Positions 1 to 37,834 of a stretch of DNA of 64,000 bases are shown piece by piece. The stretch covers positions 19,561 through 83,560 of the forward strand of contig JADJEH010000011.1 of the NCBI GenBank assembly GCA_016702305.1. The letters are read 5' to 3'. How positions within the stretch are numbered: position 1 is the first letter of the stretch; every line of letters begins with the position of its first letter. The stretch is from a bacterium (lineage in GTDB: Bacteria; Electryoneota; RPQS01). The position numbers and the translations under genes were made by a program. The notes below the pieces were generated by a model. The model was not told the origin of the DNA, ran no database searches, and saw only the letters and a program-made list of their open reading frames with translations.

Positions 1-2918
1 TGATATCTTGCTGTTTGCGAGCGCGCCGTTAAAGTACCTTGTATTTGACGAGGCCCATACATACGATGGCGCCGCTGGCGCGGAAGTCGCGTGTTTGATC
101 AGACGAATTCGAGGATTGGCCCGAAAGTCACCTGAAGAGGTTATCTGCATTGGCACATCGGCGACTTTGACCGATCCGCAGAAAGCAGATGATGACGGAG
201 CTGCCAAACGCTTTGCGTCACGCTTCTTCGGCGTTGATGAAGCCAACGTTAGCTTGGTAGGCGAGGCATACGTCCAACGGGAATGGCCGCAAGAAAGATA
301 TCGGCCGGAACCTCCGCAAGGCAACGGCATGGAAAGAGTGAATCGGCTCATGACTGCACTCGGTGAGGAAGCTGACATTGCCGTCATCAAGTCCGAAGTG
401 GAATGGCTGACAGGCAAAACGTTTGAACCGGGCAAAGATTGGAGAACCTCGCTCTTTGACCACCTCATTGGGAATGATTACGTCTATTGCGCCGAGAACG
501 CTCCAAGGCTCCGCAAGAACTTGTGGAAGGCGCGTGGATTGTCTCAAATCAGCTGAAACCCAATCGTCTTCCTCAGGAGCCTGGCTAACGCAGAACTGCT
601 GGCGTATCTTGCGCTCGGCGCTGCGGCCCGGAAAGATGATGAGTCATTGCTTCGACCCAAGGTTCACTTCTTCATCCGCGGCTTAGAGGAAATGGTTGTT
701 GGGATTGGAGGCGATGCTGATGCCACGAGAGTCGAGCTCTACCCCTCAATCAAACATGGCAAAGACGCAAGGCCGCTCGCACGAGATAGTGCGCTATTTC
801 CAGTGCTCGTCTGTCGTGAGTGCGGTCAGCACTACTTTGAACGGAAGTATGAGAACCTTGAGCTAAATCAGACAGGACGCCGAGTCGAATTGCTCAATGG
901 CAATGCACAAGGTGATTTACTCCGCGGTGGAAATGCGTGGTGGGGGCCGACATCAGCTGATTCAGGCACAAAGTTAGTCATGACCAATCGCCTATTGGAA
1001 GAAGGCGACGAAGATGAAGAAAGCGCGGCAGATAGGAAACTCACCAAGGCGTATCTCTGTCGAGATTGTGGAGCGTTGCATACAAATCCGGGAGAAAAGT
1101 GCTTAGCTGAAGGCTGTGGTCATCTGGCTGCACTGCTCCCGACTTATTTGATAGGCGAGAAGGTCTCGAGTTGCCCGACCTGTCGTGCATTGTCCCGGAA
1201 GATTGGGGGCAGAACGCTCGAGCCAGTGAGGTCGGTGCGCGCTGTTACTGTGTCAGACGTTCACATTCTTGCACAGGAAATGATCAATGCGGCCCCGGAA
1301 GGTCACAGGAAGTTGGTTGTTTTTGCGGATAGTCGTCAGGATGCGGCTTTTCGAGCGGGCTGGATTCAAGATCATGGCCGACGCATCCGGTTGCGTCATA
1401 TGATGTTGGAGGTGATACGCAAAGCTGATCAGCCACTTTCGTTTAATGATCTTACTGACAAGCTCCAAGGTAGCTTCCAACGTGACAAGAAACTCGCAGA
1501 AGCGCTGTTACCTGAAATGTTTGAGGAGGATGCAGCCATCATCTTCGAGCAACGAAACGAGTGGGTTCGCGTGGGCAAGGCACTTGGGTATATGGTGCTG
1601 CGTGAATTTACTTCCGGACTTCGTAAGCGAGAAGTATTGGAAGCTCTTGGCTTAGCGCGGCTCGAGTACAACGGCATCACGGCTGAAGATTCAGGTGTTT
1701 CCGCATGGGCAGCGATGGTGGGCATGGAACCCGAGGACGCTGTGCAAGGAATTTCGTCGTTGTTAGACAACTGGCGAAGAAGCCGAATGCTGTTCGTGCC
1801 GGATGACCCCATCTATTCGCGCTATCACCCGAAGGACAGTCCATATCTTCAAAGTGGAATTCTCCCATTGCGCGATTTTACGCCGACAGGGCTTGTCTTA
1901 AAACCCCTCGCGCAGAATCGAGCAAGGGCGAAGCGTTGGCGGAATCTCGTTAATGACAAAGGTTCCGGTGCGCTCCAAGTTCTTCTGCGAAAATGGACGC
2001 GAGGTCAAAGCAACATTGACGCCATGAAATGGGCAGAATTCCTTTGGGACATTCTTACAACGAATTTGAAGTTGCTTGAGAATGTCATTCTACTTGACTC
2101 CCGAGGTAAAACGCTCGCAGACGAAGTCTGGCAGCTCAACTCGGATTGCATTAAGGTAGTAGAACAGAGTGGGCGTTTCAGATGCAAGAAGTGTCAACGC
2201 GTTACATCACGACCATCTCCCCAAAACCTCTGCATGCAACGAAACTGTGATGGAACGGTCGTCCACGAAGAACCAAATTTTGAGGACTATAACGTCTCTA
2301 TTATGGACCGTGCCTTTACCATGGTCAATGCGGAAGAACACACCGCTCAGGTTCCCGGAACGGTCAGGGCAAAGGTTGAGCAAGACTTCAAATCGGCAAA
2401 GGGTAGAACAAACTGCTTGGTTGCAACTCCCACACTTGGAGTTGGGAGTTGATATAGGCGCGCTAGACATGGTCTTACTCCGGAACGTGCCCCCACAATC
2501 AAGCAATTACTGGCAACGTGCCGGTCGTGCCGGACGTCAGGAGCGCATGGCTGTAATCAGCACTTATTGCAGGAGAGCCAATCACGATCGGTTCTTCTTT
2601 GAGGATCCCTTAAGGTTGCTTAGTGGTTCAATCGCTGCGCCGGCGTTCAATTTGCGAAATCCGGTCATGCTTGAAAAGCATATAAGGGCAACGATACTTA
2701 CTGAATTGTTGCAATTGTCTCACGGCAATACCGAACAAGCAAGACACATTCAAACAGTGCTCAGTGTTTTGTTCCCGCCGTTCATTCGTGACTACTTGCT
2801 GGATTCCAACAACAGTTATAAGACAGATCCACAAACTACCGCGTCACTTGGTACTTTGCTTGACCAACAATGTACTACTTTGACGAAAAACGTTCTTTCC
2901 CACTTCGTGAAATTCTGA
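1..2918 (+). CDS. Superfamily-2 DEAH-box helicase, 5'-partial at the window edge, with Zn-ribbon inserts. The reading frame is broken by an in-frame TGA at 554-556 and a 1-nt indel near 2438
   Basis: Motif II 'VFDEAHTY' and motif III 'GTSATL' lie in ORF 8..556. A motif IV-like 'KLVVFADSRQDAAF' sits near nt 1310. Motifs V/VI 'VATPTL(E)LGVDIGALDMV...QRAGRAGRQ' span the frame switch at ~2440. Four Cys pairs fall between the RecA-like halves (CRECG, CRDCG, CLAEGC, CPTC). Pieces 8..556, 647..2452 and 2169..2918 join into one protein if one base is removed near 2438. Confidence 0.7.
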
Positions 2919-2986
2919 CCAGACGAAACAAATGGGGTTGGTAGATAGGGGCGGATTAAGGCCGTGATACAGACACTCCGGACGAA

Positions 2987-4473
2987 TTGTCATTAGTGAT
3001 ATCGAGGCTTCACAAGCGGCTAGACTGGGCGCTTGATACTCAGAAAGAGCTGCACCGCAAGAAAGAGACTAGGAAACTCGACCAAGAAGAGCGGCAGATG
3101 CTGCGGCGGTGCAACGACTTTATTGAGATATCACGAGTCGTGAACGATCGACTTATACGCTTGCCGTTCTGAGCACCGAAGGTTTCTTCCAGGGTATGGC
3201 ATGTACGAGGGCGGGATCACGGCTTCAGCAGCATCAGGATTTTCTCAGAGGTCTGGTCCAGTCACGTTTGAATTGTCGAGGTCACAAGCCGTTGCGTTGG
3301 GAGAGTTTGTGCCCGGGAATAGGCTGTATGCAAATCGAGGAACCTTCTACGTTTCACGCTACCATCTAGGTGCAGGAACTGAAGGTCAAATTGAATTACT
3401 GTCAGTTGACCCAGAGCAGGGGTTTGTTGCTCGCGAAGGCGTTGCCTCAGCATATGGTCAAACGGGTTTCCAAACACTTTATGCAATGCCAATTGTTGAC
3501 CTAGATATTGCGCATGAAGGTCGCATTACTGAGGACGAGGTCCTTCGCTTCTCAATGCCAGTTCTGATTGCGGGTCGTCTATTGAAACATCATCGAGGTG
3601 GCAAAGCATTCAAAATAGGTAAGTACGGAGACCCACATGTTGCGTGGCCAAGGAATACAGCTTGTGAATCTTGGCGAGGCAGGGCTTGCAAAGGCTAGTG
3701 GAGGCGCCACGAACTAGGGTTTCATATTTGTTCTGTATGTGGGGCAGCCAAAAGCCCTTACGTTGTACCTCTCGAGCGACAACATTTTGATGAACACCAC
3801 AGGGAGCGTTGCGGCCGGGATCCTGTTCAATTAGGTCTATCTGCAAAGACAGACGTTGACATGCTATTGTTCCACAAAATCAGTAGCCTGCCAGAAGGTG
3901 TGAACATTGAGAGATACTAAGAACTGCCGCAGCTCGAATATTAGACATGGGGCACGATGACCTCAACTGATGCCAATACCTGGTTCAGATGGCACTCTAG
4001 ACTACACTATTTATGACCCGATGCCAGGCGGTTCTGGGTTCTTGACCAAATGTTAAAACGTTGGCCGGAGTTAATAGAAGCAGCATATGATGTCGCCTCC
4101 TGCAAAGCCGCTTGCGAGCGTGCCTGTTACATTTGCCTTAAGACCTATCGAAACCAGTTTCAGCATGACCACCTTGATAGAAACTTAGCCCGTACCCTTC
4201 TTGTCGAACTGGGCCAAGCCCCAGAATTGCATCGCGACATTGAGCCGGTCCTTGATAAAGGAGACTCCGGAACTGGGTCACCAAGCAATCCCCCCTGGGA
4301 TGAGCAGATCTCTGCATGGCGACCCTCAGCAACAAGTTCGTGACAATATCATTCGCCAAGCATTAGAACTCGACGGTTTCGCCGTAATTGTAATCCAAAG
4401 CAGAGATCTCAATGATCCGGAAATAATGAGATCGCACATGGCAACTTTGTCGGCCGCATTGTCAAAAGCCTAA
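2987..4473 (+). CDS. Cys-rich Zn-binding region resembling the DUF1998/MrfA C-terminal domain. It is either the helicase C-terminus or a separate DrmB-like partner gene, and has several frame breaks
   Basis: Co-directional ORF pieces 2987..3172, 3201..3698, a frame at 3720-3900 and 4050..4343/4201..4473. Cys clusters 'ICSVCGAAK...HFDEHHRERC' and 'CKAACERACYICLKTY', plus a 'YDPMPGGSGF' motif. It sits directly 3' of a DEAH helicase, as in MrfA, DruE and DrmA/B architectures. The domain call is from memory of family signatures, not a search. Confidence 0.4.
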
Positions 4474-4581
4474 TGACAAGAACAGAGATTTTCGCGGATA
4501 TGGGCGCAGGCGCACCTTACCAAACCATTGTAAATCCCCTCCCGCCTACCCCAGCGTCGCGCATCCGGGTAAAGAACTTGA

Positions 4582-5214
4582 TTGATTATGATACTCGAGA
4601 ACCTTCTTGCATCAATCGTTGGTGGCGCAGTAGTCTGGGGGTTTAGCGAATTGACACATCGCCGACGTTCCTCAGACGAACATCGCGCCGCTATCGGCAG
4701 GGTCCTATTTGACCTCGCTGAAGTGCGGCATGGGTTGACGTATGTCAGCGTAATGGGGGAGTTGTTTGACTCTATGGACGTTAATTTCCTCGCATGACCG
4801 AATGGCTGCAAAGTGACCATTGGCAAGATACTGCCGCCGATGCCAGACCTTCATCAGAGGCTTGATGAGGCGTTGCGCTTCGTGGCAGGTACCGATCCGG
4901 ATCTTGCCTTTCGAATGCGGAGTAAGGACCAAGTCGAGTCAATACTTTCTCGCTGGCAAGCCGTGGTTGCTGAACACATAGATGACATTAGCGCATTACA
5001 AACGAATGAGCTACTCGAACCTCTAATTGTCAATTCAGCATGCGAGACGTTAGACGAAGCCATTCTTGAGCTCGCCAAGCGGCATGGCAAGTCCACGCTT
5101 TCCGACTTTGAAAAGCGTGTCAGCAAATGGAAGGATCGACCTGCACTGCTTGCAGAGGTAAAGAAGGAATTGGCTGAGAAGATCCCGCAGCTTGCTTATC
5201 TGCAGAATGAATAG
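4582..5214 (+). CDS. Hypothetical protein of ~210 aa. A single frame is interrupted by an in-frame TGA at 4798-4800
   Basis: ORFs 4582..4797 and 4813..5214 share frame 1 and are separated by one TGA. No recognisable motif. It lies between the helicase and the SIR2 gene. Confidence 0.3.
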
Positions 5215-5381
5215 GTGGATTCGAGGCGCTGGTTCGTTGATCTAACAGTAAGTAGTATGGCGCCGAGAACCTGACTTTCCAATCTCATTTGGTTATTTTC
5301 TTACTGTATTCGGGCCACAAGAAAGGTCCAATAAGGGTTATCTTGTGACAGGCGACCAACTATAAATCGGGAACATCACCC

Positions 5382-6710
5382 ATGTCTATTAATACATCAG
5401 ACGAGAAATGGAAGAACCACCTTTACAGGACTGGCTCACATATCGGTAGCTATGACGACGTTCCAGACAATCCCGATCAATTGCGTAAGCATATAGAGCC
5501 GTGGCTGTCTGCGGTTTTTCAAAGTGAGCATTTGTCACTACTTCTCGGAAATGGTTTTGGAATAGGGGTTTCCGGTGGCAAATTCATGGCTAGCATGGGT
5601 GTCTCCCGGGATTCGACGGGCCATTGGCCGAATTTGTCGAACAGGCCTCAAGTAGGTCAGCAAAATGCTCCGAACGTGGAGTGCCCAATTTTGAGGACAA
5701 CTTACGCGTTGCAAATGAACTACTAAGAGGACTGGAGATTCTCGCCGATCCTCGCTCAACCGACCTGCAAACGCAAATTGGCACGAAGCTCCAGGTCTTC
5801 CTAAAATCGGTCTTGGAGTCTGAGCGCGACCTCCTCGCTGTCTTTGATAAAGGTGATCCTGAAGCGAACCTTCGACAAAATCTCCTCATATCTTTTCTTG
5901 TTGAGTTTTTGCAAGTCGAACACCATCTCGAGAGAGGCTAAATCTATTTACAACAAATTACGACCGACTTATCGAGTATGGTTGTGACCAAGCTGGGCTA
6001 CGCATCATGGATCGATTTGTTGGGATGTTGTCACCAGTGTTTCGTGCCTCACGTATGAATCTAGACTTTCATTACAACCCTCCCGGCATTCGCGGCGAGC
6101 CACGGTATTTGGAAGGTGTGATAAGGCTGTTCAAATTGCATGGCTCAATTGATTGGCGCCAATTGCGGCGAGAAATAAGGCGTCAGTCACTGCCTTTTGG
6201 CGCGCCTGACAACCATCCTGCGATAACAATGGGTCCACCAGACGGGGTAATCATATATCCAAATGCTGCAAAGACATGGAGACATCCGAGTATCCATACG
6301 CTGAACTATTCCGCGACTTCGCGGCTGCTACGTGCCGACCTAACTCAGTGCTTGTCACTTATGGCTATGGTTTTGGCGATGACCACGTTAACCGCGTGAT
6401 TCGGGATATGCTCACGATTCCTTCAACGCATGTGGTAATTATTTCGTATGACAATCCGGGGAAACGAGTTGAGTCGTTCTGCGACAAAGTGGGCCACAAA
6501 GCTCAGATATCACTCCTCATTGGTTCACACTTTGGTGAATTTCAAAGCCTTGTCGTAAACTACCTACCCAAGCCAGCGATTGATCTCATTTCTTCACGAA
6601 AAACCGAATTGCTACAGCGGCGCGGTGATGAACTACTGAGTACTCCTGACGACGCAACTGTAAAGCAAGGAGCTGGAGTCGGAGGCAATACAAATGCAAA
6701 CACCAATTGA
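5382..6710 (+). CDS. SIR2-family NADase-like defence protein, the SIR2 partner of a SIR2-HerA system. It is split into four frame pieces
   Basis: Gly-rich NAD loop 'LLGNGFGIGVSGG'. 'LFTTNYDRLIEY' reads in frame 1 just upstream of ORF 6007. 'KLHGSIDW' follows. These are the classic SIR2_2 motifs GxG, TTNYD and KLHGS. Pieces 5382..5726, 5624..5941, 6007..6399 and 6276..6710 are co-linear. Confidence 0.65.
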
Positions 6711-8790
6711 AAGTGCTGCTGCACTAACTATCGGAACGGTTGAATCCGTATCGCCATCCGAGATTTGGGTTCTACTCGATACTGATGCACCCCAAGCAAC
6801 CGCTTTGAATGCGGGTACTCCAATCGGATTCCCACGGATCAATGGATACGTATTAATTCCAAACGAGACGGGTGCAGTTGTCGGAATGATTGTTTGGTTA
6901 GGCGTGGAGAGATCTGCTTTCCCAAAGCGACCTGGAATGAAAGACTTTGGTCTTATTGACTTGCCCTATCCGCCCGAAAACTGAAGCTCACACCACTTGG
7001 TACCTTGGTTCAAAGAATGGAGAAGGGAACCTACTCTTACAGGCTAGAGCGTGGTGTTTCTGCCTTTCCATCAGTTGGTGATCCTGCATCATTGCCTACC
7101 GAGACCCAACTTAGGAGCATTATTGAAGCACCCGATGTAGCTGATCAAAGAGTAACGATCGGAACTTCACCGTTGACCTCCAGCGCGCGGGTAACTGTTG
7201 ACCCTAACAAGGTCTTTGGAAGACACCTAGCGGTTCTGGGTAATACTGGAAGCGGTAAATCATGTACGGTTGCTGGCCTTATTCGCTGGTCGCTGGCTGA
7301 AGCTAAGGAAGCGTGTGTGAAGAGCCAAAAGAACAATCAGGTTAACGCTCGATTCATAGTCCTTGATCCAAATGGTGAATATGGCTCGGCCTTTGATGAT
7401 CTAACCTCTGTACGGCACTTCCGTGTACCTCCTTGTGAAGCCCCGTTCAAAGACCCAGTGCTACCTGCCTGGATGTGGAATAGCCATGAGTGGTGCGCTT
7501 TAACGCGTGCTGCGCCTGGAATTCAACGCCCGTTGTTACTGCAAGCACTTCGAGATATGCGAGCAGGAACGGAACTCAAAGAGAGTACTGAACGCCAATG
7601 TTGCCGATATCTTCGTTCTCACCAGTTTTCTCTCGAAAATCGAGTTGTTCGGGGACTTGATGGCTATGCGGCATTCCCAGAGAGCAACAATTGCGGCCTT
7701 CAGTTTGCAAATATTGCAGAAGACACCAAAGAGGTATGCAAGTGAATTCTCGGATGATCAGCACAAATCACTTCAAAACCTTGCTGAAACCGCCCAAAAG
7801 GTAGCGGACAGTCGACATTGGGAGAATCTGGCAAAGGGAACTGGAGGTTATAACGCCTTCAGCGAGTCTGATGTATTATCAGTCATTGAGTGCATTCGCA
7901 AGGCACTTGGAGGCATTCCCGTGAAATTGACAACTGAGCCGATAAGCGAGGATGCTCCTTTGCACTTCGATGTCAATCTCCTTCCCGACCACCTCGAACA
8001 AGTCGCGAATATCTCGCCGAGCTCGCAGGCCTCGCTGCTCATATCGACCCTTACTTTACGAATCCGCATGATGCTAGCAGATCGAGACTGGGACCAGTTG
8101 TTAACCCGGACGCTGCTGCAATTTGCTTCGAAGACTGGCTGAGGTGATTACATTGGGAATGATGGAGCATCAATGGGCAGCTGGTAGTTCTGGATCTATC
8201 GTTGCTGGTCTCAGCTGACGTGCTTCTGGGTTGTCGCCGTCATAGCACGTATCGTTTTTGAAGCAGTACAACGATATCGGCGAATTGAGCACATGGAACT
8301 ACCCACGGTCCTCGTTTTAGAAGAAGCACATTCGTTCATTCAGAGAGGCAGTGAACAAGATGATGGAACACCAAATCCTACGCAGATGTGCCGACAGACA
8401 TTCGAGCGCATTGCTCGTGAGGGACGCAAATTCGGCTTGGGTTTGGTCCTCTCGTCACAACGACCTTCAGAACTTTCTTCTACTGTACTCGCGCAATGCA
8501 ACACCTTTCTGCTTCATCGTATCGTCAATGATCGCGACCAGGAGCTAGTAGGAAAACTCGTTCCTGACAATCTAGGCGGATTGTTAAAGGAACTCCCGAA
8601 CCTGCCGTCCCGCCAAGCAATTCTCTTAGGTTGGGCAGCACAAGTGCCCGTACTCGTAGAGATCAATGAACTTCGAGAAGAGCATCGCCCAAAATCCGCC
8701 GATCCGAAATTCTGGGAAGTTTGGACAGGGAGTGAAGAGCGAACTATCGACTGGAAGAAAATCGTTAGTGACTGGACGGGAACAACGTAG
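6694..8790 (+). CDS. herA: HerA-like FtsK/HerA-family ATPase with an N-terminal HAS-barrel. It is the partner of the upstream SIR2 gene and is split by frame breaks
   Basis: The N-terminal HAS-barrel-like segment is 'IGTVESVSPSEIWVLLDTD...NGYVLIPNETGAVVGMIVW'. Walker A is 'LGNTGSGKSCTV'. The Walker B region is 'VLVLEEAHSFI'. Pieces 6694..6984, 7005..7745, 7507..8142 and 8293..8790 are co-linear. The break at ~6977 is an A-run length change. Confidence 0.65.
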
Positions 8791-9685
8791 TGTGCTAAAG
8801 AACGGAGTGACTGCCCTACTTCGGTTTTGGGCCACGCACTTGGCACAAAAGGTGAGGGGTTATTACAAGTAGAATGTTCGATAAGTCCAGTCAGACGGCC
8901 CGACAGCGTATCATGGTATCGATTCAATGTCGTTCCCCCCAATCTTGAAATTCCGATCCGAATCGTGTATATTGATTCGATTATCATCCGTTTTCCGCAC
9001 GCTCTCGCTTCGACAAATGACGTAAAATCGTCTCGTCGTCGCGCCTGCCTTCCGTCAGCGCATTTGGCACAAAAGGATCAGTATTATTACGGTGTACTGG
9101 AGGGTAAAGGCCCGCTTGCCTGGATTAAAGAGATGATTCACCTTTGAAAGCGCTAGCTTTGTTGTTTACTGAACATAGTTTAGCAGGCCTTCCATGCAAC
9201 TCAAAAGCCGCGAAGGCGACGAAGGCGTGAAGTATTGGTAAATCAATCGTATAACAGCGAATCAAGGTGCGACCCGCGATGACGACACACGTAATCCCGT
9301 TTTGTCACATTGCAAAATAGCGTAGGGCAGAAGTCTCTCCGACCCACGAATTCTGCATAATAAATTCCGACTTTGGCCATAATTGGCGGACTCATTTGTA
9401 CTGGTCGTCACGAAGTGAACGCGTTCTGAGCAAACAGTCGAATAATCGATAGCCTCTAAAATACTCCTAATTGGGTCAGAATTAAGAACTCTGACCCAAT
9501 TTTTTTATTCACTCATTGATAAACAATAACTTATAGATTCCAGCAATGTGGAGAAAATCGAGATATGCATCTGACATTCGTTGACCCACGGCAACGTTCG
9601 CGCTAAATTGTGGATGCGAAGCAGATTCCATCTAGCCGCACGTTTCCCTCCCAGTTCAAGAGTTATCAATTTTACAAGGAACGCC

Positions 9686-12600
9686 ATGAAGACCCTGGTT
9701 TTCGTCTTGCTCACTTTTTGCAAGCTCTGTCTTTGCAATTCCCCAAATTGTCAATACCAAGGTCAGTTAACATTGTCGTCAGGAAGTCCACTGACAATCA
9801 CAGTGGCAATGTCGTTCAGCATTTATACTGAATTTTCAGGTGGTGCTGCGGTATGGACCGAAGTCCATCCTGCGGTCGTGGTCACCGGTGGCCTATTCAA
9901 TGTCAGCCTTGGATCGCTAACATCGCTTAACGATCTATTCGCCAACAATCGTTGGCTTGGAATCACTATCGGGTCGGATGCAGAAATGTTGCCGCGAGAG
10001 CAAATTAAGTCGGTTGCTCATTCTTATCGTGTTGGAACAGTGGATGGGGCAACGGGCGGTGTTATCACTGGGGATGTTCGTGGAACTGCAAAGGGAACCT
10101 TTGGTTCAGGAAGCATCGCTTCTGGTGTCGCTGCAACAGTCTCCGGGTGGTTCGGGCAACACTGCAAGTGGAGAATTAAGCACTGTTGGCGGTGGAGATG
10201 CCAATACCGCTTCAGGAACCTGGAGCACGGTTGGTGGTGGATACGAGAACACAGCCTCCGGTGAAATGTCCACGGTTTCTGGCGGCAATGTCAACTTCGC
10301 GCCATCAGACTACTCAACTGTTGGTGGTGGCGTAGGCAACAATTCATCGGCAGCCTATTCGACTGTAAGCGGCGGCGGCAATAACGAGGCAAACGGCGTG
10401 CATTCAACGGTGGGTGGCGGTACCAGCAATTTGGCCAACGATTACATTACGACCGTGTCCGGAGGACTTAACAACACGGCCAATGATTCCGGTAGCTTTG
10501 TAGGAGGCGGACAAGACAACGTCGCTATGAATTCTTTCGGTACAATCGGAGGGGGACGTAGCAATGCAACAGCAAGCTCCTATTCTACAGTTGGCGGCGG
10601 GCAAAACAACTCGGCATCGGACGACTATGCTTTTGTCGGCGGCGGACAAAATAATACTGCCGAAGCCACAGGCGCGTCCATTGTCGGCGGCGACAGCAAC
10701 CAAGTCTGGTCCAGTCACGCTTTCATAGGCGGCGGACAAAAGAATTACGCCAATGCTTCTGGCGCTGTGATCGTTGGTGGCGCAAATAACATTGCGTTCG
10801 GTATTAACTCAACCGTGGGCGGTGGTAGCTTCAATAAAGTGCGCGGCGACTATTCCCTGATCGCAGGCGGCGGGGGAATACTGCATCCGACTCGAACAGC
10901 ATTGATGCAATTTCTTACAATAGCATGATCGGAAACGGATCTCGAAACAAAGTACAAAACGCGCCTTACGGAGTAATCTCTGGAGGTAACAGTAACACTG
11001 TTTCAAACATGTTTTCTACAATCGGCGGTGGACTTAACAACGTTGCTAGTGGCAATACGTCTACTGTTGGCGGGGGAAACCTTAATCGGGCACGCGGCGA
11101 CTATAGTGTCATCGCGGGAGGAGGAGGCGGCGGCAGGGCAGACTCAAATAGCGCCAGCAACACCAATTCCACTATCGGCGGCGGCAAAAGTAATGTAGCC
11201 AGCGCCATTGGTTCGACTGTTAGTGGCGGTACCCGAAACAGGTCCCGGGGTGACTACTCGGTTGTGAGTGGAGGTGGCGGTGCATCTTCAGCAGATTCCA
11301 ACAGTGCCATCGGTGATTGGTCAACAGTGAGCGGTGGTCACAAGAATTTCTCTGGCGATCAGTTTGCGTCGGTTAGTGGAGGCGAGAATAACGCCGCAAG
11401 CGCGCTCGGTTCAACTGTGAGCGGCGGACGATTCAACCGTGCGAGCGGCGCATATTCAGTAGTTGCAGGCGGCGGAACCTCCTTGCTTGCCGATTCCAGC
11501 AGCGCCTCTGGTCTAAACTCTACGATCAGCGGCGGCCGAAAGCACTCGGCAAGCGGTAGTTACTCGGCAATTAGCGGTGGAAACGAAAACAACGCCAGCG
11601 GTACCTATTCATCCATAGGGGGCGGCGCCAGCAACATAGCAGATGGGATCGGCTCAACAGTCAGTGGAGGTCGCTTCAATCGTGCAAGTGGCCTATACTC
11701 CGTGATCGGCGGCGGCGGCGGTGCTTCAGAAGCCGACTCCAATATCGCCAGCAGTTCTTATGGTACAATCGGTGGTGGTAATCGAAACATTGCCAGCGAT
11801 GTGGGCGGGACTGTAAGTGGCGGGGTTGGGAACATCACGCGTGGTGTCTACTCAACTATCGGGGGCGGCTACAGCAACGGCGCACACGATACAGCAAGTG
11901 TGGTTGGCGGTGGTTACAACAATTCCCTCTATGGAGATTATTCGGTGATCGCAGGCGGCCAGAATAATCACACAGTACACCATTATGCGACTATCGCGGG
12001 AGGCTACGGTAACGAGGTGATTGGCTACTACTGCACCATTTCGGGTGGCGGGGACAATACGGTCACTTACAGTTATGCCACAGTTTCTGGAGGGCGCTAC
12101 AATGGAGCACACGGCAACCATGCCACGATAGGTGGTGGAACCTATAATTTCGCTCGCGCGAGCGGAGCAGTAATCGCTGGAGGTGGAACTGGCTCTGCCG
12201 CAGACTCAAATAGTACGGAGGGTGGTCAATCAACCATCAGTGGTGGATCAAGAAACTATATAGATAATGGCGGATTTGACGGGACAATTGGCGGTGGATA
12301 TTTTAACCGTGTAAGCGGACAGAGGGGCACCGTAAGCGGTGGCTCGCAGAACATCGCAAGCGGAGAATTTGCTACCGTAGCTGGAGGAGTAGGCAATACG
12401 GCTTCAGGCAACTATTCAATATCAATCGGTGGCGCAAGCAACAGCGCAAGTGGAGACGCCGCTACCGTTTGCGGATTTACGAACTCTGTAAGCGGAGATT
12501 ACGCGTTTGCGGCTGGAAAGAATGTGGATGTGGCAGGAACAGGTTCTGTAGCCCTGGGCGCCAACATTAGCTGCAGCGCCGACAGCTCGTTTGTCTTTTC

Positions 12601-13083
12601 CGACGGAAGCGGTCCACTGTTTAGCATAGGTGCAGAAAACACATTCAACGTTAAGGCTAATGGAGGAGGTAGGTTTTGGACGACAGCAGATCACGCTAGC
12701 AACATCGGGACGCGGCTCGCAGCAGGGGATCGTCATGGGTTGCTCTAAGCGATTCAACGAAGAAAACAAATCGAATACCTGTAGATTCAAAAGCAATTTT
12801 ACAGAAGGTCGCCGCGCTTCCGATTGACCAGTGGAACTACAAGCATCAAGCGGATGGCCCTTTGCATATTGGGCCAATGGCTCAGGATTATTGGAACGCA
12901 TTCCATCTCGGTGAAGACAGTTTAGGCATCGAAACCATTGACGCAGACGGCGTGCTGTTCGCGGCGGTGCAGGAATTGGCAAAACAGAACGCGGAGCTGA
13001 AGCAAACAAATGACAAGCAAACATCAGAGATTGCTGAACTCAAGCAGTTGGTAGAACAAATGACTCAACTTGGAAATAAGTAA
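9686..13083 (+). CDS. Tail-fibre-like surface protein, paralog A of ~1,130 aa. It has a signal peptide, a conserved N-terminal domain, a long Gly-rich repeat core and a C-terminal intramolecular-chaperone (peptidase S74) domain. At least three frame breaks are present
   Basis: 'MKTLVFVLLTF...YQGQLT...VAMSF...VWTEVHPAVVVTGGLFNV...NRWLGI...EMLPREQ...HSYRVGTVDGATGG' matches the paralog N-termini. There are dozens of 'STVGGGxxNxASGxxS' repeats. The C-terminus 'IPVDSKAILQKVAALPIDQWNYKHQADGPLHIGPMAQDYW...GVLFAAVQELAKQNAELKQ' is the S74 chaperone signature. Frame switches fall at ~10145 (GGG run), ~12700 and ~12770. Confidence 0.7.
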
Positions 13084-13103
13084 CAGGACGATTCGGAATT
13101 CCC

Positions 13104-14327
13104 ATGAAAAGACTCTTACTCGTATTACTCCTTTCCGCGAACGCGATGGCGATCCCGAGGTTGGTGAACTATCAAGGTCAGTTGACCTCGCCGACCGGTA
13201 CGCCGCTCGACACGACAGTTGCGATGACGTTTAACATCTGGCCAACTCCCACAGGTGGAGTTTCAGTATGGACAGAGACGCATCCGGCTGTGTCTGTGAC
13301 TAACGGACTATTCAATGTTCAGCTTGGTTCCATCACCACTCTAACAGATCTTTTCTCAGTCAATCGTTGGCTCGGAATTGCAATACAAGATGACCCCGAA
13401 ATGACTCCTCGTGAGCAACTGTTATCAGTTGTTCATGCATATCGTGTCGGAACGGTGGACGGCGCGAGTGGCGGAACGATAAGCGGGAATGTGAATATTT
13501 CTGGCAAAGCCAATATCGGTAGTGGAAACGTCAACAGTGGCAGTTTCGCTTTCGTTGCCGGGCAGAATGATACGGCAAGCGGCCCTTTTTCTACGGTTAG
13601 CGGCGGTTTTGGCAATGTGACGAGTGCCAATTCTGCAACTGTCGGCGGCGGTTTTGGCAATTCGGCGAGTGGCACTGATGCGACTGTTGGCGGCGGTAGT
13701 GGCAATACGGCGAGTGCCAATTCTGCAACGGCGAGTGGAGGGAGTGGCAACAGTGCCAGCGGCGTCGCGAGTTGCATTCCCGGAGGAGCGAACAATATTT
13801 GCTCCGGAGTAGGCTCGTTTACTTGTGGGAATAACGCCCATTCCATCGGGGACAGCAGCTTTGTTTTTAATGATGGCAGATACGGCGGGAACATCGGCGG
13901 CCAAGCGCGACGGTTTATTGTGATCGCGTCCGACGGCTCCTTTATCCATACGAATAGTACCGCCACGTTGGGTGCCCAGCTTCCCGCCAACGCCACAGCG
14001 TGGGTTGCCATCTGTGACTCGACTAAGAAGAATCGGTATGGGCAAGTCAACACAAGTGAAGTGTTGTCCAAACTTTCTCACATTCCCATTGAAACATGGA
14101 GCTACAAAGACGACCCCAACCATGTGAAGCATATCGGCCCGATGGCGCAGGATTTTTACTCGGCGTTTCATGTAGGCGAGAGCGACACCACGATTTCAAC
14201 GCTTGATCCGGATGGCGTTGCGCTCGCCGCAATTCAGGAATTGGCGAAGCAGGTTAAGCAATTGCAAAGTGAGAACACTGAGCTAAGAAAACTGGTCGAG
14301 CAAACGATTAAATTGGGAAACAAATAG
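13104..14327 (+). CDS. Tail-fibre-like surface protein, paralog B of 407 aa, intact. Same N- and C-terminal domains as paralog A with a shorter Gly-rich core
   Basis: Signal peptide 'MKRLLLVLLLSANAMA'. N-domain '...NYQGQLTSPTGTPLDTTVAMTF...'. C-terminus 'CDSTKKNRYGQVNTSEVLSKLSHIPIETWSYKDDPNHVKHIGPMAQDFYSAFHV...GVALAAIQELAKQVKQL', matching the S74/endosialidase-chaperone pattern SD.R.K.N / IG..AQ / coiled-coil tail. Confidence 0.8.
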   Translation: MKRLLLVLLLSANAMAIPRLVNYQGQLTSPTGTPLDTTVAMTFNIWPTPTGGVSVWTETHPAVSVTNGLFNVQLGSITTLTDLFSVNRWLGIAIQDDPEMTPREQLLSVVHAYRVGTVDGASGGTISGNVNISGKANIGSGNVNSGSFAFVAGQNDTASGPFSTVSGGFGNVTSANSATVGGGFGNSASGTDATVGGGSGNTASANSATASGGSGNSASGVASCIPGGANNICSGVGSFTCGNNAHSIGDSSFVFNDGRYGGNIGGQARRFIVIASDGSFIHTNSTATLGAQLPANATAWVAICDSTKKNRYGQVNTSEVLSKLSHIPIETWSYKDDPNHVKHIGPMAQDFYSAFHVGESDTTISTLDPDGVALAAIQELAKQVKQLQSENTELRKLVEQTIKLGNK

Positions 14328-14330
14328 AGA

Positions 14331-16221
14331 GTGATAATGAAGATGATGAAATTCGCCATAGTGCTCTTCCTGTTTGCTGTGCAAGCCTTTGCAATCCCGC
14401 AAGTGATCAACTACCAAGGGCAGTTGACCTCGCAGACCGGAACACCTCTCGATACGACAGTGGCAATGACGTTCAATCTCTATCCGGTTGTATCCGGTGG
14501 AGCAGCGGGTTGGAGTGAGACACATCCGGCAGTTGTTGTAACAGACGGGCTTTTCAATGTGCGCTTAGGCTCCGTCATACCGTTACCGGATGTTTTCTCG
14601 GTGAACAGTTGGCTGAGTGTGACGATTGGCGCAGATACGGAAATGTCGCCGCGTGAGCAGATTGTGTCGGTCGGTCATGCCTACCGTGCGGGGACGGTGG
14701 ACGGAGCGACGGGCGGAACGATCACCGGAAAGTTGAATGTTGGAAGCGGCAACACAAACAGCGGAAGTTTCGCCAATGTGCTGGGCGAGTCCAATAGCGT
14801 CAGCGGCAACTGGGGAGCGATATCAGGCGGAAGTAATAACATTTCGACGGAAGGATTCTACAATGTTATTGGCGGTGGAGCTGGAAACATCGTAGAGGCG
14901 GGTATCGTGACGATCAGTGGCGGATCCCTTAATCATGCCTTTCCCAATGCCTATAACGCTGTCATAGCGGGCGGAGAAGGCAATTACGTCAATGGGATCT
15001 TTGGCGTCATCGGGGGCGGGAATTACAACAACGTCATAAGCGACAGTGCGGCAACGATCGCTGGTGGATTTTTTAATAGAGTGAGCGCGAACTATTCGGC
15101 CATCGGTGGAGACGCATACAATATTGCCAGTGGTCAAGGATCCGTCGTGAGTGGGGGTGTGCAGGATTCCGCGTCTGGTTCGTATAGTACTGTTGGCGGT
15201 GGTCAAGGCAATAGCGCAAACTTCGTTGCAAGTACTATTGGCGGAGGACGGTATAACACCGCAAGTTCGAACGCTACGGTCAGCGGCGGTGTAGGAAATG
15301 CGGCGAGTGGAAACACGTCAACAGTCGGAGGCGGAGGAGGGAATACCGCAAATGGCAATTCCGCAACTGCCAGTGGCGGTGAAGGGAACATGGCGAGTGG
15401 CGATTATGCAATTGTCGGCGGTGGTCATGACAATGTTGCTTCAGGCATCAGCACAACAATTGACGGCGGCGAATTTAATACTGCGAGTGGTAATTATGCT
15501 ACGGTCGGCGGCGGTGCAGGAAATTCGGCGAGTGGATACAATTCAACAATCGGAGGCGGTAGTATAAATTCAGCAAGTAACTTTTTTTGCAACTGTCGGC
15601 GGCGGAATTGGCAATAGCGCGAGCGGTATCGGGAGTTGCATTCCCGGAGGACGAAACAATTCCTGCTCCGGTGAGGGCTCATTTACCTGTGGGAATTATG
15701 CGCATTCCGTTGGTGACAGTAGCTTTGTTTTTAATGATGGCAGATATGGCGGCAATATTGGCGGCCAAGCACGGAGGTTTATCGTGGTTGCGTCCAACGG
15801 TACTTTTATTCACACGAACAGTACCGCTACTCTGGGAGCACAGCTTCCCGCCAATTCGACTGCATGGGAAGCCATCTGCGACTCGACTAAGAAGGAACGA
15901 TATGGACAAGTCAACACCAGGGATGTTTTGTCCAAACTAACGATGATTCCGATTGAAACATGGAGCTACAAAGATGACCCCAATCACATCAAGCATATCG
16001 GCCCGATGGCGCAGGACTTTTATGCAGCGTTTCATGTAGGCGAAAGTGACACCACGATCTCCACGCTTGATCCCGATGGCGTGGCACTGGCGGCGATTCA
16101 GGAATTGGCCAAGCAGAATGAACAGAAAGACACAAAGATCACCGAACTCGAAGCGCGAGTGAAACAGCTTGAGGCAGCGATCTTACAATTTGGGAATCTG
16201 ACACAAACAGATAAACAGTAA
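14331..16221 (+). CDS. Tail-fibre-like surface protein, paralog C of ~630 aa if read through. It is interrupted by a +1 frameshift at a T7 homopolymer at 15581-15590
   Basis: The N-terminus is 'MIMKMMKFAIVLFLFAVQAFAIPQVINYQGQLTSQTGTPLDTTVAMTF'. ORF 15784..16221 carries the S74-like C-terminus '...KKERYGQVNTRDVLSKLTMIPIETWSYKDDPNHIKHIGPMAQDFYAAFHV...'. With T6 instead of T7 the frame reads 'NFFATVGGGIGNSASG', which matches the repeat consensus of paralog B. Confidence 0.7.
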
Positions 16222-16232
16222 GGAGTCCACCC

Positions 16233-16697
16233 ATGAACAAAGCACTCGTCCTACTCTTCTTGCCCGCACTCTTGTGGGCACAGTCTCAGAGCGAGAATTT
16301 CACCCTAACAAAGTCCGTCATTGACGCAGGCGGCGGCGCGTCGAGTTCTACGAATTTCAACCTCGTTTCTGCGTTCGGTCAACCGACGCCAGTCGGTGTG
16401 CAGTCAAGCGAAAGTTTCACACTGTACGCGGGCTTCTTGACGCCGTTGCTTTCCGTTTCACCGCTGTCACCAATTCAACGCCTGGTAATTAAGGAAGCGC
16501 AACCGGACGCGGTACTTAACTGGGAAGCCATCGCCGGTGCGGGAAGCTACTCTGTATATCGTAATACTGCGATCAACTTCACGCCAGGACCCGGAAACCT
16601 AGTCGGCACAACAACGAATACTACATTTACGGACACAAACGTTTTGGCGGGTCCCGCTGTTCAGCAGTATTACATCGTCATCGTGAATAACCCATGA
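16233..16697 (+). CDS. Small secreted hypothetical protein of 154 aa with a signal peptide
   Basis: 'MNKALVLLFLPALLWAQSQ' is a signal peptide. The protein is Thr/Ser/Gly-rich and immediately follows the tail-fibre-like genes. No known motif. Confidence 0.5.
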   Translation: MNKALVLLFLPALLWAQSQSENFTLTKSVIDAGGGASSSTNFNLVSAFGQPTPVGVQSSESFTLYAGFLTPLLSVSPLSPIQRLVIKEAQPDAVLNWEAIAGAGSYSVYRNTAINFTPGPGNLVGTTTNTTFTDTNVLAGPAVQQYYIVIVNNP

Positions 16698-16864
16698 CAC
16701 GATCAATCAGACCCCTTGCGGCGTCGCAACCATTGTGGTCCTGTCCTTGGCATTCACTTGGTTTCATTTGGAAGCGCGTGAAATCGCAAATCAGGTTGCA
16801 CTTGACTTCATTCGATTTCGTTGGCGCGTTAAATCAATGATTTAACAGCAGATACATGTTGGGA

Positions 16865-16908
16865 CTGTCACGCCGGAGGTCGCGGGTTCGAGTCCCGTCG
16901 GCCCCGCT
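16865..16908 (+). other. 3' fragment of tRNA-Asp(GTC), running from the anticodon loop through the T-arm to the acceptor 3' strand, with no 5' half. It is a putative att core and island boundary
   Basis: 'CTGTCACGCcGGaGGTCGCGGGTTCGAGTCCCGTCgGccCCG' is near-identical to the 3' part of bacterial tRNA-Asp, whose 3' half is CTGTCACGCAGGGGGTCGCGGGTTCGAGTCCCGTCCGTTCCG. No D-arm or complementary 5' acceptor strand is present upstream. Confidence 0.7.
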
Positions 16909-16917
16909 AAAAAACAA

Positions 16918-16955
16918 GGGTTTACCAGAAATGGTAAACCCTTTTCGTTTTACCC
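16918..16955 (+). terminator. Rho-independent terminator, the native tRNA terminator, directly after the tRNA fragment
   Basis: The 9-bp stem is GGGTTTACC/GGTAAACCC with loop AGAAAT, followed by TTTTCGTTTT. Confidence 0.7.
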
Positions 16956-34372: not shown

Positions 34373-34755
34373 TTACATCGTCTTCGCCGCAATCCAAGGC
34401 CTGAAAATCGCGCTCGCAACCTTGGACCGCTTGTTTCATAGTTGATAAAATCAATCAAGTTATAAATGCAATATTGTCATTGTGTCCGGAGAGGTGCAAC
34501 TTTCTATTTAGACTGGCTAATCTGCATTGCTTATCTGTGCGCGATTGTGTAGCTTATTGGACAAGGTGAGTACTACCCCGCCGCATCGGATGCAAACGGT
34601 GCGAAGTAACTCCTCAAATTGTGCGGCACCTGTGCACAGGACCGGTTCGGCATTGGCGATGGAGGATGGAAGAGGATATGTCGCTAGCGATGCTCGGCAA
34701 GTACCTGATTTAGGCCGTGGACTTGCCAGAAGGAACATACAAGAAGGAACGTGAC

Positions 34756-37617
34756 ATGAAGAATCGAATGAGACTATTTGTGGGACTCGCCGCGCTGCTT
34801 AGCGTCGTGGCGGTATTCGCTGCCTCGACCGTCATAAGTCAAACGACACATGGCAAATCGGCGACTGTAACCTACGTGCGCGATGCCGAGCCAAATAGTG
34901 CCTCGGCAACGTCAACTGACCCGGCCATCACCAAGGTGATCGCTGAGCAGCGGGAGCTTCAGGGATTGTACCACGAGTTCCAAGCGGCCAAGACTGCGGG
35001 CGCGGCACCTGCGCCAGCGCTGCTCAGTCGAGTCGCACAGCTACGTCCGCCCGCGGTTCGCCGCGGCAGCCTGGATCAGGGTGGTGAAGATTGCACGACC
35101 TCGACACCGATTGACTTCGTGCCATACACGGATTTTGGCAGCACATTCGGTTATCAGGATGAAATCCCTGAATGCGACGGCAGCGGCGCGGGACCTGATG
35201 TTGTCTACTCCTATACGCCTGCGACCACCGGCGACTATTACGTCAGCATGTGTGGATCGTCGTATGACACAAAGCTGTCGGTCTATGCGGATAATTGCGG
35301 CGGCGTACCCATTGCCTGCAACGACGACGGGCCCTGCTGGCCGTCATCGGTGATCGCCCGCGTGACTCTTGTGGGCGGAACAACGCATTACTTCGTAATC
35401 GACGGCTGGAACGGTGACTTCGGCGACTATGCGTTCTACATTGAAGAACTGGCGCCGGCACCCCAAGGCGATAACTGTGACAACCCGATCGTCGTCGCGG
35501 ATCTTCCATTCAGTGTCGTAAATGAAACGAACTGCGTCTACTCGAACAACTACTCCGGATCCACGTGCCTGAGCAATCAGGATGAAGGCCCGGACGTTAT
35601 CTACTCGTTCACGCTAACGACGCAGACGTCCGTCGAGATTATCCTCAACGCGCATCTGTCCGACACTCCGCCGCAGGAATGGGTTATGCCCGGAATCCTA
35701 CTCAGCGACCATTGTCCGCCGGATTGGACATGCATTGCATCGGCCAGCAGTTGGACGATCGTCGAGTCAATTCCGCTTGTGCTGGACTGCAACTCGCTTG
35801 CCGCAGGTACGTACTATGTCATGATTGACAATGGAACTTGGCTCCACCCTTGCTACTCCTACGATCTGTTGATTCAGACCTGTGGGCCGTGCGACCTGGT
35901 CAGTCAGCCGGGTGATGTTGAAGAAGTGGCCGAGGCGTTCCCGCTGCCCGGTACGTTCTCGATCAACGATCCCGATGGCGGCTGCAACAACGACACTCCG
36001 TTTGCGCCGCAGTTTCACGATGTCGCGGGCGGCCAGACGGTTCACGGCCGGACATTTGCCTATACGGACTCGATTTCAGGTTCATTGCGCGCCGACACGG
36101 ACTGGTACCGCTTGTCACTCGCGATGCCGGCTGAGCTGACGGTTACCTACGTCGGTGAGACGTCGCTGCAAGCTGCCTTGCTCGAAGCACCGTGCGGAAC
36201 GATCCCCCTGCAAAATGGCATTCAGACGACGCCTTGCGGCTCGCGGTCAATGACGACCACATGCCTTGCGCCCGGCGACTATTACATTCGTATCACGCGC
36301 GGCGGCGCTCTGTCGTCTCCGGACACTGAGCCGTTTGAATATCGCGTATCATTCGATCTGGTTACCTGTGAACTACCCACGGGCCGCTGCTGCTACGCCG
36401 GCATTTGTTCGATGTACACGGAGCCCGAGTGCGATATTCTGGGTGGTTATTGGGATGCGCTGCTGACCTGCGCTGATCCCTGTCCGATCTATCCGCCGAA
36501 TGACCATTGTGAAAATGCCGGTGTGCCGGCGACGCTGCCTGCGACATTCACGGGCACCAACGTCAATGCCACGAACGACTGCCCGCAGGAGGGCGACCCG
36601 CAGGTGTGGCACGTCTTCACAACCACGGAAACGCAGGACATTCAGATTGACTATTGCGGCACCCAGAATTTTCACAGCTTCAATCCGTGGATTTATGACG
36701 GCTGTCCGTGTGGCGACCGCATCATGCTGGAGGCCGTGGACTGGGGCTTCTGTTCACCGATCACAGCGATGACAGGTCTCTGGCGCAGCGTACCGGCCGG
36801 GACATGGTACATCTCAGTTACGATGTACGACCCCAATAGCATCGGCGAATACACCATTCATGTCAATGCCGTTTCCAGTCTTCCGCCTGACAATGATGAG
36901 TGTGCGGCGGCTGCGCCTCTAACACTTGTTCCCAATGGATCCGTTACCGTATCCGGAACCACGATGAATGCCGCAGCAAGTTGCACGGACGCGTGTGACG
37001 AGGGTGGCTTCACTTACAGTTCTTCGGGCGGCGACGTGTTCTATTCGCTGGACTTAAGCGAAACTCGAAAGATCGCGCTGGCGCTCGGCACGAGCGACAT
37101 GCACATTTCCGTCTATGAGGGCCAGGGCCAGTGTTGCGTGAGTCCTGCGCTCCTGTGCAACGACGATGATGCCAACTTTGTACCGCTGCCTTCGTGGGAC
37201 GTTCCCGAACAGCATCCTGGCGAATCAAGGTCCTATGTTGCCGCGAATATGGGGCCGGGGCTGTTCTTGATTCGGGTGGCCAAGTATGGCGCGCAAGTTG
37301 GCGCCTACACGCTCACGGTTTACGACAACGGTCCCTTGCACTGCACGCCGCCTGACGCTCCGGACGATCTCACCGCGATGGTCGAGGGTGACAATATAGA
37401 ACTCCGGTGGTCAACCGACGCCGCGTCCGCTGCGCGCGGCACCTATCGGATCTGGGCCAACACCAACTGGATGCCGTTCGATGACCTAAGTTGGACGATT
37501 GTCGCCGATAATATCGTGCCGGTGGTCGCTGACGACCATCTGTACTACAGTGAGCCTGCCGCTGGCAACAGTATGATGTTCTACATCGTTACCGGTCACT
37601 GCACGGATACGCCATAG
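34756..37617 (+). CDS. Large secreted Cys-rich protein of ~950 aa with repeated PPC-like (pre-peptidase C-terminal-like) beta-sandwich modules
   Basis: Signal 'MKNRMRLFVGLAALLSVVAVFA' with an AAGAAGGAA RBS. Recurring 'D(V)VYSYT...GDYYVSMCGSSYDTKLSVYADNCGG' / 'DVIYSFTL...' / 'GGDVFYSLDL...HISVY' modules. Many Cys. Confidence 0.65.
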   Translation: MKNRMRLFVGLAALLSVVAVFAASTVISQTTHGKSATVTYVRDAEPNSASATSTDPAITKVIAEQRELQGLYHEFQAAKTAGAAPAPALLSRVAQLRPPAVRRGSLDQGGEDCTTSTPIDFVPYTDFGSTFGYQDEIPECDGSGAGPDVVYSYTPATTGDYYVSMCGSSYDTKLSVYADNCGGVPIACNDDGPCWPSSVIARVTLVGGTTHYFVIDGWNGDFGDYAFYIEELAPAPQGDNCDNPIVVADLPFSVVNETNCVYSNNYSGSTCLSNQDEGPDVIYSFTLTTQTSVEIILNAHLSDTPPQEWVMPGILLSDHCPPDWTCIASASSWTIVESIPLVLDCNSLAAGTYYVMIDNGTWLHPCYSYDLLIQTCGPCDLVSQPGDVEEVAEAFPLPGTFSINDPDGGCNNDTPFAPQFHDVAGGQTVHGRTFAYTDSISGSLRADTDWYRLSLAMPAELTVTYVGETSLQAALLEAPCGTIPLQNGIQTTPCGSRSMTTTCLAPGDYYIRITRGGALSSPDTEPFEYRVSFDLVTCELPTGRCCYAGICSMYTEPECDILGGYWDALLTCADPCPIYPPNDHCENAGVPATLPATFTGTNVNATNDCPQEGDPQVWHVFTTTETQDIQIDYCGTQNFHSFNPWIYDGCPCGDRIMLEAVDWGFCSPITAMTGLWRSVPAGTWYISVTMYDPNSIGEYTIHVNAVSSLPPDNDECAAAAPLTLVPNGSVTVSGTTMNAAASCTDACDEGGFTYSSSGGDVFYSLDLSETRKIALALGTSDMHISVYEGQGQCCVSPALLCNDDDANFVPLPSWDVPEQHPGESRSYVAANMGPGLFLIRVAKYGAQVGAYTLTVYDNGPLHCTPPDAPDDLTAMVEGDNIELRWSTDAASAARGTYRIWANTNWMPFDDLSWTIVADNIVPVVADDHLYYSEPAAGNSMMFYIVTGHCTDTP

Positions 37618-37834
37618 TTGCAATTATCGGTCGCGAGCAGTTTGCCTGGCGTCGTTCCAAGGCCTTGGCAAGAGGGCCTGGACGACGCAGGAATAGTCCT
37701 GCTGGCGATGTTAGCGCTCCTGTACTACGCGCTGCTCTGAGAGCAGCATGCATTGGTGAAATGAGCGGCGGTCAGAGCGCAAGACTCTGGCCGCCGCCTC
37801 ATGAGTATATACCACGGATCATCTACCGCCGCGA

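Follow-up and report, generated by a model that had tools for sequence, protein, structure and literature searches.

A probable four-gene operon for MAT-like fiber proteins and a small putative partner protein in an uncultured Electryoneota bacterium

We analyzed a stretch of 64,000 nucleotides from a bacterium of the phylum Electryoneota (GenBank assembly GCA_016702305.1, contig JADJEH010000011.1, positions 19,561 to 83,560 of the forward strand), hereafter the window. On its plus strand, between 9.6 and 16.7 kb, the open reading frame (ORF) listing and a three-frame translation revealed four genes separated by gaps of 9–20 nt (Table 1). Three of them, denoted A, B, and C, are paralogs coding for fiber-like proteins, and the fourth, acc154, codes for a small protein that is 100% identical to IPH10_10485 in the record of a bacterial metagenome-assembled genome (MAG), the likely source. 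The short gaps and the hairpin that ends the array led us to regard the four genes as a single operon. We thus interpret the region 9397–16943 as an operon of three paralogous Sec-exported fiber proteins and one small conserved partner protein, and we assign a probability of about 0.7 to the explanation developed below, taken as a whole. A preliminary description of this DNA, made from the sequence alone, had already placed three tandem paralogs on this strand, and the reanalysis found them at the positions given there. Throughout, the window was compared with related loci, chiefly those of assembly GCA_964269295.1 (L001), of an Illumina megahit contig (L002), and of a sister Nanopore MAG (L003).

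Table 1. Coordinates of the operon features and of the single-nucleotide indels in genes A and C.
Feature	Position	Strand	Description
Conserved region upstream of the operon	9397–9685	+	Homology to L001 and L003 starts at 9397
Fiber gene A	9686–13083	+	Conceptual product of 1132 aa once its five 1-nt indels are repaired
Fiber gene B	13104–14327	+	Intact, 407 aa
Fiber gene C	14337–16221	+	About 627 aa once one T is taken out of the T7 run 15582–15588
Partner gene acc154	16233–16697	+	154 aa; signal peptide, three SxNFxL strands, FN3-like domain
Conserved non-coding element	16698–16912	+	About 215 nt; ends in the tRNA 3′-half remnant
tRNA 3′-half remnant	16866–16912	+	47 nt: anticodon loop (GTC), T-arm, acceptor 3′ strand
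Terminator hairpin at the operon end	16916–16943	+	12 bp; pairing retained in L003 despite other sequence
Gene A, indel 1	9711–9715		Extra T in T-run
Gene A, indel 2	after 9754		Missing T
Gene A, indel 3	10143–10145		Extra G
Gene A, indel 4	after 10876		Missing T directly 3′ of the G5 run that ends at 10876
Gene A, indel 5	after 12724		Missing G in G-run
Gene C, indel	15582–15588		Extra T in T7 run

The three fiber proteins follow a common plan, consisting of a signal peptide, an N-terminal domain (N-domain) of ~115 aa, a Gly-rich repeat core, and a C-terminus of the Peptidase_S74 family. Signal peptides were judged by eye, from a positive n-region, a hydrophobic core, and an AxA site; cleavage at this AxA-type site would leave a mature protein that begins with IPxxxNYQG. 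The N-terminal motifs reported as shared in the preliminary description are present in the alignment of the three proteins. In an AlphaFold monomer model of B (predicted local distance difference test, pLDDT, 83), both the beta-rich N-domain, with strands over residues 21–106 at pLDDT 91–95, and the beta-roll formed by the repeats are confidently predicted, and the most conserved motif of the fibers, RVGTVDGAxGG, is poorly modeled.

The repeats of the core have a period of 15 aa (45 nt), rather than the 13–14 aa initially proposed, and A additionally contains some 21-aa units. The large differences in core size among the paralogs were confirmed, with somewhat lower counts: by reading, we obtained ~50, ~7, and ~22 units in A, B, and C, respectively, compared with ~60, 8, and 25. 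The core profile of the family matched the head of the trimeric adhesin UspA1 of Moraxella catarrhalis (3pr7, E=1.4e-37), in agreement with the earlier view of an adhesin-head-like core. Similarly, the best PDB match of the B model in a Foldseek search was UspA1 (3ntn), and the Pfam family UspA1_rep is present in some of the homologs. An ice-binding or antifreeze function was also considered and rejected: the scores for Pfam LbR_Ice_bind were 18–21 bits against a cut-off of 30, which we attribute to a generic beta-roll resemblance.

At the C-terminus, all three proteins exceeded the gathering cut-off of Pfam PF13884 Peptidase_S74 (32.3, 30.3, and 29.2 bits for A, B, and C, respectively, against 22), as expected from the preliminary description. 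The corresponding region of the B model (pLDDT ~73–77) matched the ICA domain of MyRF (7dc3) with a Foldseek probability of 0.99–1.0 and a target-normalized TM-score of 0.48. A phmmer search of the single A and B C-termini against PDB gave no significant match, and the S74 assignment is therefore based on Pfam and Foldseek. In the C-terminus, the S74 domain is followed by a long helix.

Examining the S74 nucleophile revealed a difference among the paralogs. The SD pattern that had been ascribed to all three genes holds for A, which carries SDSTKK; B (Cys304, codon 14013–14015) and C (Cys516, codon ~15877–15879) carry CDSTKK at position 1 of the S74 profile. Among the 95 homologs with a recognizable motif, this position is occupied by Ser in 76 and by Cys in 19, and by no other residue. 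Such a restriction to two residues argues for a conserved nucleophile in the CDxxxK proteins rather than for a lost function. The S74 domains of phage proteins, such as the K1F endosialidase and T5 pb1, and of the eukaryotic MyRF resemble those of the window in their Pfam family and in the fold of the MyRF ICA domain, and A has the SDxxxK motif; they differ in that the window domains belong to secreted cellular proteins and in that B, C, and the 19 homologs have CDxxxK instead.

The N-domain has no Pfam match in A, B, or C. Its only significant NCBIfam match (E<0.01) was Bdello_MAT_N (NF053851), which full-length B matched with 36.3 bits (E=4e-9). The match holds when the signal peptide is removed (33.8, 25.6, and 22.8 bits for B, A, and C, with E from 1e-9 to 6e-5), and the same model matched 79 of 83 and 88 of 90 members in two sets of the family (167 of 173 overall, best E=5e-20). 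This model represents the N-domain of mosaic adhesive trimer (MAT) fibers, which were described only in 2024, by Caulton et al., and only in Bdellovibrio (B. bacteriovorus), where they are used in prey recognition; the S74-type members consist of a signal peptide, a constant beta-rich domain of ~130 aa, a long shaft, and an S74 domain, and according to the authors no partner of this constant domain is yet known (PMC10769870).

Overall, the window fibers agree well with the S74 subgroup of MAT proteins, e.g., Bd3182, in having a signal peptide, a beta-rich N-domain, a repeat shaft, and S74. Both families also occur in many copies per genome, with S74 or non-S74 tips. The window fibers differ from MAT in several respects. 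They come from uncultured bacteria of another phylum, for which predation is not known, and score 23–36 bits on Bdello_MAT_N, for which the curated cut-off is 60. In addition, their genes are tightly tandem in an array closed by the 154-aa gene (the words “tandem” and “operon” are absent from the main text of PMC10769870), and B and C carry Cys at the nucleophile position. Scores below this cut-off, combined with the lack of any other significant match, indicate superfamily-level homologs and not members of the Bdellovibrio subfamily. Judged by sequence, the window fibers are a distant, non-Bdellovibrio variant of the MAT fiber family, encoded in a four-gene operon.

At E≤1e-3, a profile search with the N-domain retrieved 59,295 representatives (50% identity level). 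Named carriers of the family are MAGs labeled Calditrichaeota, Zixibacteria, KSB1, Ignavibacteria, and others. A locus holds 1–7 fiber genes in tandem, and genomes have several such loci, consistent with the multi-copy, adhesin-like family with constant ends and variable cores that had been proposed. Close relatives also differ in their set of paralogs: L001 has five, and six N-domain matches were found within the 20-kb stretch of L003. Of 90 representative proteins, 38 end in S74, and the C-terminal tips of the others are Dockerin_1, CTHRC1_C, Beta_helix, or nothing recognized. Three further proteins (P0132, P0135, and P0240; 1289–1542 aa) contain three separate N-domain matches each and may be fused tandem fiber genes or read-through gene calls.

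We further examined the gene that closes the array. In the related loci, acc154 lies directly 3′ of the last fiber gene at 22 of 39 array ends. When all S74-type fiber genes in these loci are considered, the next gene is another fiber gene in 67 cases, acc154 in 22, and neither in 17. The most conserved part of the protein, residues 17–68 with the three SxNFxL strands, is modeled with pLDDT <50, next to an FN3-like half that has pLDDT >90 and an Fn3-like PDB match; this pattern in the model suggests a segment that would fold only in complex. The NCBIfam family CPR_pilus_PamT (NF058579) matched the N-terminal ~65 residues in 49 of 51 acc154 homologs (best E=1.5e-9), and the window protein obtained 24.2 bits, against a cut-off of 240, over profile positions 14–80 of 241 only. 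PamT is the tip pilin of the Pam pilus of the candidate phyla radiation (CPR) (bioRxiv 10.64898/2026.03.03.709456). In contrast to PamT, acc154 has 154 aa and an FN3-like C-terminal half, and neither Pam pilins nor chaperones were observed in its vicinity.

These features suggest how the system may work. The N-domain, a predicted beta-sandwich distantly homologous to that of MAT, would be the cell-proximal docking end of the fiber. It would be followed by a shaft of 15-residue “TVGGGxxNxASGxxS” repeats, homologous to the UspA1 beta-roll head. The S74 domain, if it acts as in known relatives, would drive the folding of the trimer and then cut itself off at the Ser/Lys dyad, thus exposing the distal tip. 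Having three genes would let one cell build fibers that share a base but come in three lengths and with three surfaces, and acc154 may be a partner shared by the constant N-domains, acting in their docking, assembly, or anchoring. The fibers would then be adhesins or recognition fibers on an uncultured diderm. Regarding the host, the window encodes an outer-membrane beta-barrel protein, and large secreted proteins are encoded at 34717–39853, one with a Por_Secre_tail domain and one with a galactose-binding-like domain associated with the type IX secretion system (T9SS). The Por_Secre_tail cargo implies that the host has a T9SS, whose sorting signal the fibers do not carry; together with the beta-barrel protein, such cargo indicates a diderm.

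As assembled, B alone among the fiber genes is intact, and neither A nor C can be read as one open frame. The frame breaks escaped the preliminary description. When A was compared with its orthologs in three other assemblies, its five indels were found to be private to the window. The first two offset each other, such that only part of the signal peptide is garbled. In four of the five, as well as in the C indel, a single-base run changes length; the other A indel lies directly next to a G5 run. Once repaired, A is free of stops and has the same length as the intact orthologs in L001 and L002. For C, we found no close full-length ortholog with which to check the T7 site, the best match being 51% identical.

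Frame shifts are not limited to the fiber genes. They also split the upstream defense genes encoding the DruE-like helicase, SIR2, and HerA. For example, HerA shifts from frame f1 to f0 and back to f1 within ~150 nt, and one of its fragments, of 165 aa, still scores 324 bits in PADLOC; a SIR2 fragment similarly scores 198 bits despite its frame breaks. Among the relatives, L003 has a 2-nt deletion of its own in A, and gene calls are fragmentary throughout a related contig of 857 kb. The sister loci lie on CANU “tig” contigs of a Danish activated-sludge MAG set; for that set, Nanopore reads were assembled and then polished in a single Illumina Racon round with the option --include-unpolished (PMC8012365). 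Intact 1132-aa orthologs show the A indels to be window-private, and for A as for C the most likely explanation is errors in the Nanopore consensus that were left uncorrected; all three genes are therefore probably functional in the organism.

Several observations weigh against the explanation as a whole. None of the three proteins reaches the curated cut-off of Bdello_MAT_N, and the canonical Ser nucleophile is absent from B and C. The fiber proteins have neither a T9SS C-terminal domain nor an autotransporter barrel, and their trimerization, surface display, and self-cleavage are predictions. The proposed connection between acc154 and the N-domain is drawn from synteny. Finally, all frame breaks fall within 1–16.2 kb of the window, and the remainder (17–64 kb) is clean, with ORFs of up to 2022 aa. 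We read this distribution as a local shortage of short-read polishing over a strain-variable island.

The same distribution can be read differently, which gives the main rival to our explanation: A and C would be true pseudogenes, and the left part of the window, with the defense genes and the fiber operon, would be an acquired island in decay whose only working genes are B and the 154-aa gene. Indeed, the breaks are confined to the part that lacks synteny to relatives and is bounded by the tRNA-half remnant. We consider this unlikely, because every lesion that can be checked against an ortholog, all in gene A, is a 1-nt indel, and repaired A has the exact length of its orthologs, no nonsense codon or larger deletion, and a ratio of nonsynonymous to synonymous substitution rates (dN/dS) of ~0.11. 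Neutral decay also fits poorly with about one indel per 100–700 nt alongside the very high hidden Markov model (HMM) scores of the HerA and SIR2 fragments, and the sister Nanopore MAGs bear separate breaks. That most of the indels (5/6, including that in the T7 run of C) alter the length of a single-base run could instead point to a phase-variable contingency locus, in which homopolymer breaks are real on/off switches of A and C. However, the runs are short (2–7 nt) and dispersed over the genes, with no single long tract at the 5′ end; five breaks within one gene could not serve as a switch, and the unrelated defense genes upstream are full of similar breaks; we give this possibility almost no weight.

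Two other alternatives concern the origin of the fibers. The preliminary description had raised a phage or tailocin derivation, according to which these would be tail-fiber genes, coding for the receptor-binding proteins of a virus-derived particle. The pairing of S74 with a YadA-like beta-roll is indeed found in phage and giant-virus proteins: phrog_1980, a tail fiber family, matched over the shaft and S74 (E=1e-9), and BFVD proteins of Pithovirus LCPAC404/406 and Solivirus have a YadA-like head with S74 (query-normalized TM-score 0.44–0.53). The aligned part, however, covers ~300 of 407 residues, which is too short to take in the N-domain of the window proteins. This domain has no PHROG match, and a scan with two peptide patterns from the subfamily recovered no relatives in 2.9 million viral contigs, compared with 270 from a similar scan of bacterial species genomes. 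Moreover, all three genes encode Sec signal peptides, and no phage structural, baseplate, or sheath genes were found among the ORFs at 1–40 kb of the window or the gene calls of L001 and L002. The neighbors of the operon are defense genes, a TetR regulator, and a two-component-system kinase. A phage or tailocin origin is thus not supported, and we judge it very improbable compared with a cellular one. Classical trimeric autotransporter adhesins (type Vc) are suggested by the homology of the core to the UspA1 head, which it resembles in its “GGG” repeats by sequence and by fold, and by the name “trimeric autotransporter adhesin” given to some homologs by the Joint Genome Institute (JGI). Unlike UspA1, the window proteins lack a neck, a stalk, and a C-terminal YadA-type beta-barrel anchor (Pfam); the S74 chaperone stands in its place and presumably mediates trimerization. 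Their polarity is also reversed: it is the constant N-terminus that presumably anchors them. As they have no barrel anchor, we do not regard the fibers as autotransporters, and it would be most surprising if they belonged to this class.

We next consider how the locus varies among strains. The core had been called hypervariable, a label that the orthologs of A do not support. Compared with both intact orthologs, A shows the low dN/dS given above, alike in the N-domain, core, and C-terminus, as expected under purifying selection; relative to L001, its core has 91% amino acid identity and a dN/dS of 0.107, and the ortholog length is constant at 1132 aa. At the DNA level, the repeat units are mostly 60–75% alike and thus ill suited to slippage, and only those of B (77–80%) are similar enough for detection by Tandem Repeats Finder. 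B contains a window-specific insertion of 45 nt, exactly one unit, at 13600–13644, where its units are most alike, and is accordingly 407 aa long compared with 392 aa in three close relatives.

Along A, identity to L002 rises from ~60% at the 5′ end to 97% at the 3′ end, and it reaches 99–100% over B and the start of C; identity to L001 and L003 falls from ~97% to ~65% at ~14184. In the distal core of A, a patch at 12084–12530 has ~70% identity to L001 and L002 and 79–93% to L003, and is probably a recombination tract. On these alignments, the locus is a recombination mosaic between strains with one single-unit gain in B. The notion of a recombining core is thus retained as far as exchange between strains is concerned, and frequent slippage is not. 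Diversification therefore proceeds mainly through the exchange of gene segments and whole paralogs, and neither fast turnover of the repeats nor positive selection on the core drives it.

The paralogs themselves share 67–80% DNA identity, the highest value being that between the last ~630 nt of C and B (80%); we therefore rejected recent gene conversion among A, B, and C. These values also exclude that the three genes are a mis-assembled collapse of one repeat gene, a concern raised in the preliminary description, as do the A–B order, found in three independent assemblies, and the B–C junction, which is 99–100% identical in the Illumina contig.

The surroundings of the operon are island-like. 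Homology between the window and its close relatives is confined to 9397–16918, and the flanks show no synteny. Defense genes, which the preliminary description had noted next to the fiber genes, occupy 8–8790 and encode a DruE-like (Druantia-type) helicase and a SIR2-HerA pair. The tRNA remnant and the limits of homology fit an att-like island boundary, as the earlier suggestion of a mobile island would have it, although no integrase was found within the window.

The non-coding element that ends in this remnant is present twice in L003, each time 3′ of a copy of acc154, and partial copies of 16698–16943 were observed upstream of gene A in L001 (4003–4150) and L003 (4071–4153). ARAGORN found no full tRNA in the window. 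A transfer-messenger RNA (tmRNA) reading of 16757–16899 scored 13.9 bits, below the gathering score of 47, and was rejected in favor of the tRNA 3′-half remnant after comparison with a real tRNA-Glu and terminator in locus L018 and a real tmRNA in locus L015. In L015 (11918–12275), a complete tmRNA gene lies 72 nt after an acc154 homolog, where the window has the tRNA-remnant element. L015 and L027 both come from MAG Aved_18-Q3-R54-62_BATAC.765, which GTDB places in phylum AABM5-125-24.

At the other end of the operon, the conserved region 5′ of gene A contains a hairpin followed by a T-run at ~9473–9510. A sigma-70-like site at 9581–9609 is a consensus match only, in a region where such sites are no more numerous than in shuffled sequence. 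The start of gene C is most likely the ATG at 14337, as in the L002 gene call mapped onto the window, rather than the GTG at 14331 given in the ORF list.

For annotators, these results serve as a caution that pseudogenes or “phase-variable” homopolymer breaks in strain-variable islands of Nanopore MAGs can be polishing artifacts. The natural alternation of Ser and Cys at the S74 nucleophile invites a simple biochemical test. We also put forward, as a tentative proposal that we hold to be rather doubtful at present, that acc154 is a surface element that docks MAT-type N-domains or a strand-complementing assembly factor, such that n fibers plus one partner would form a self-contained system in many uncultured phyla, and that CDxxxK marks a natural Cys-Lys self-cleaving chaperone. 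In any case, the MAT-type N-domain heads a very large and so far little-studied family, present in uncultured phyla without a known predatory lifestyle, and acc154 provides a concrete and testable candidate for the missing partner of the MAT N-domain.

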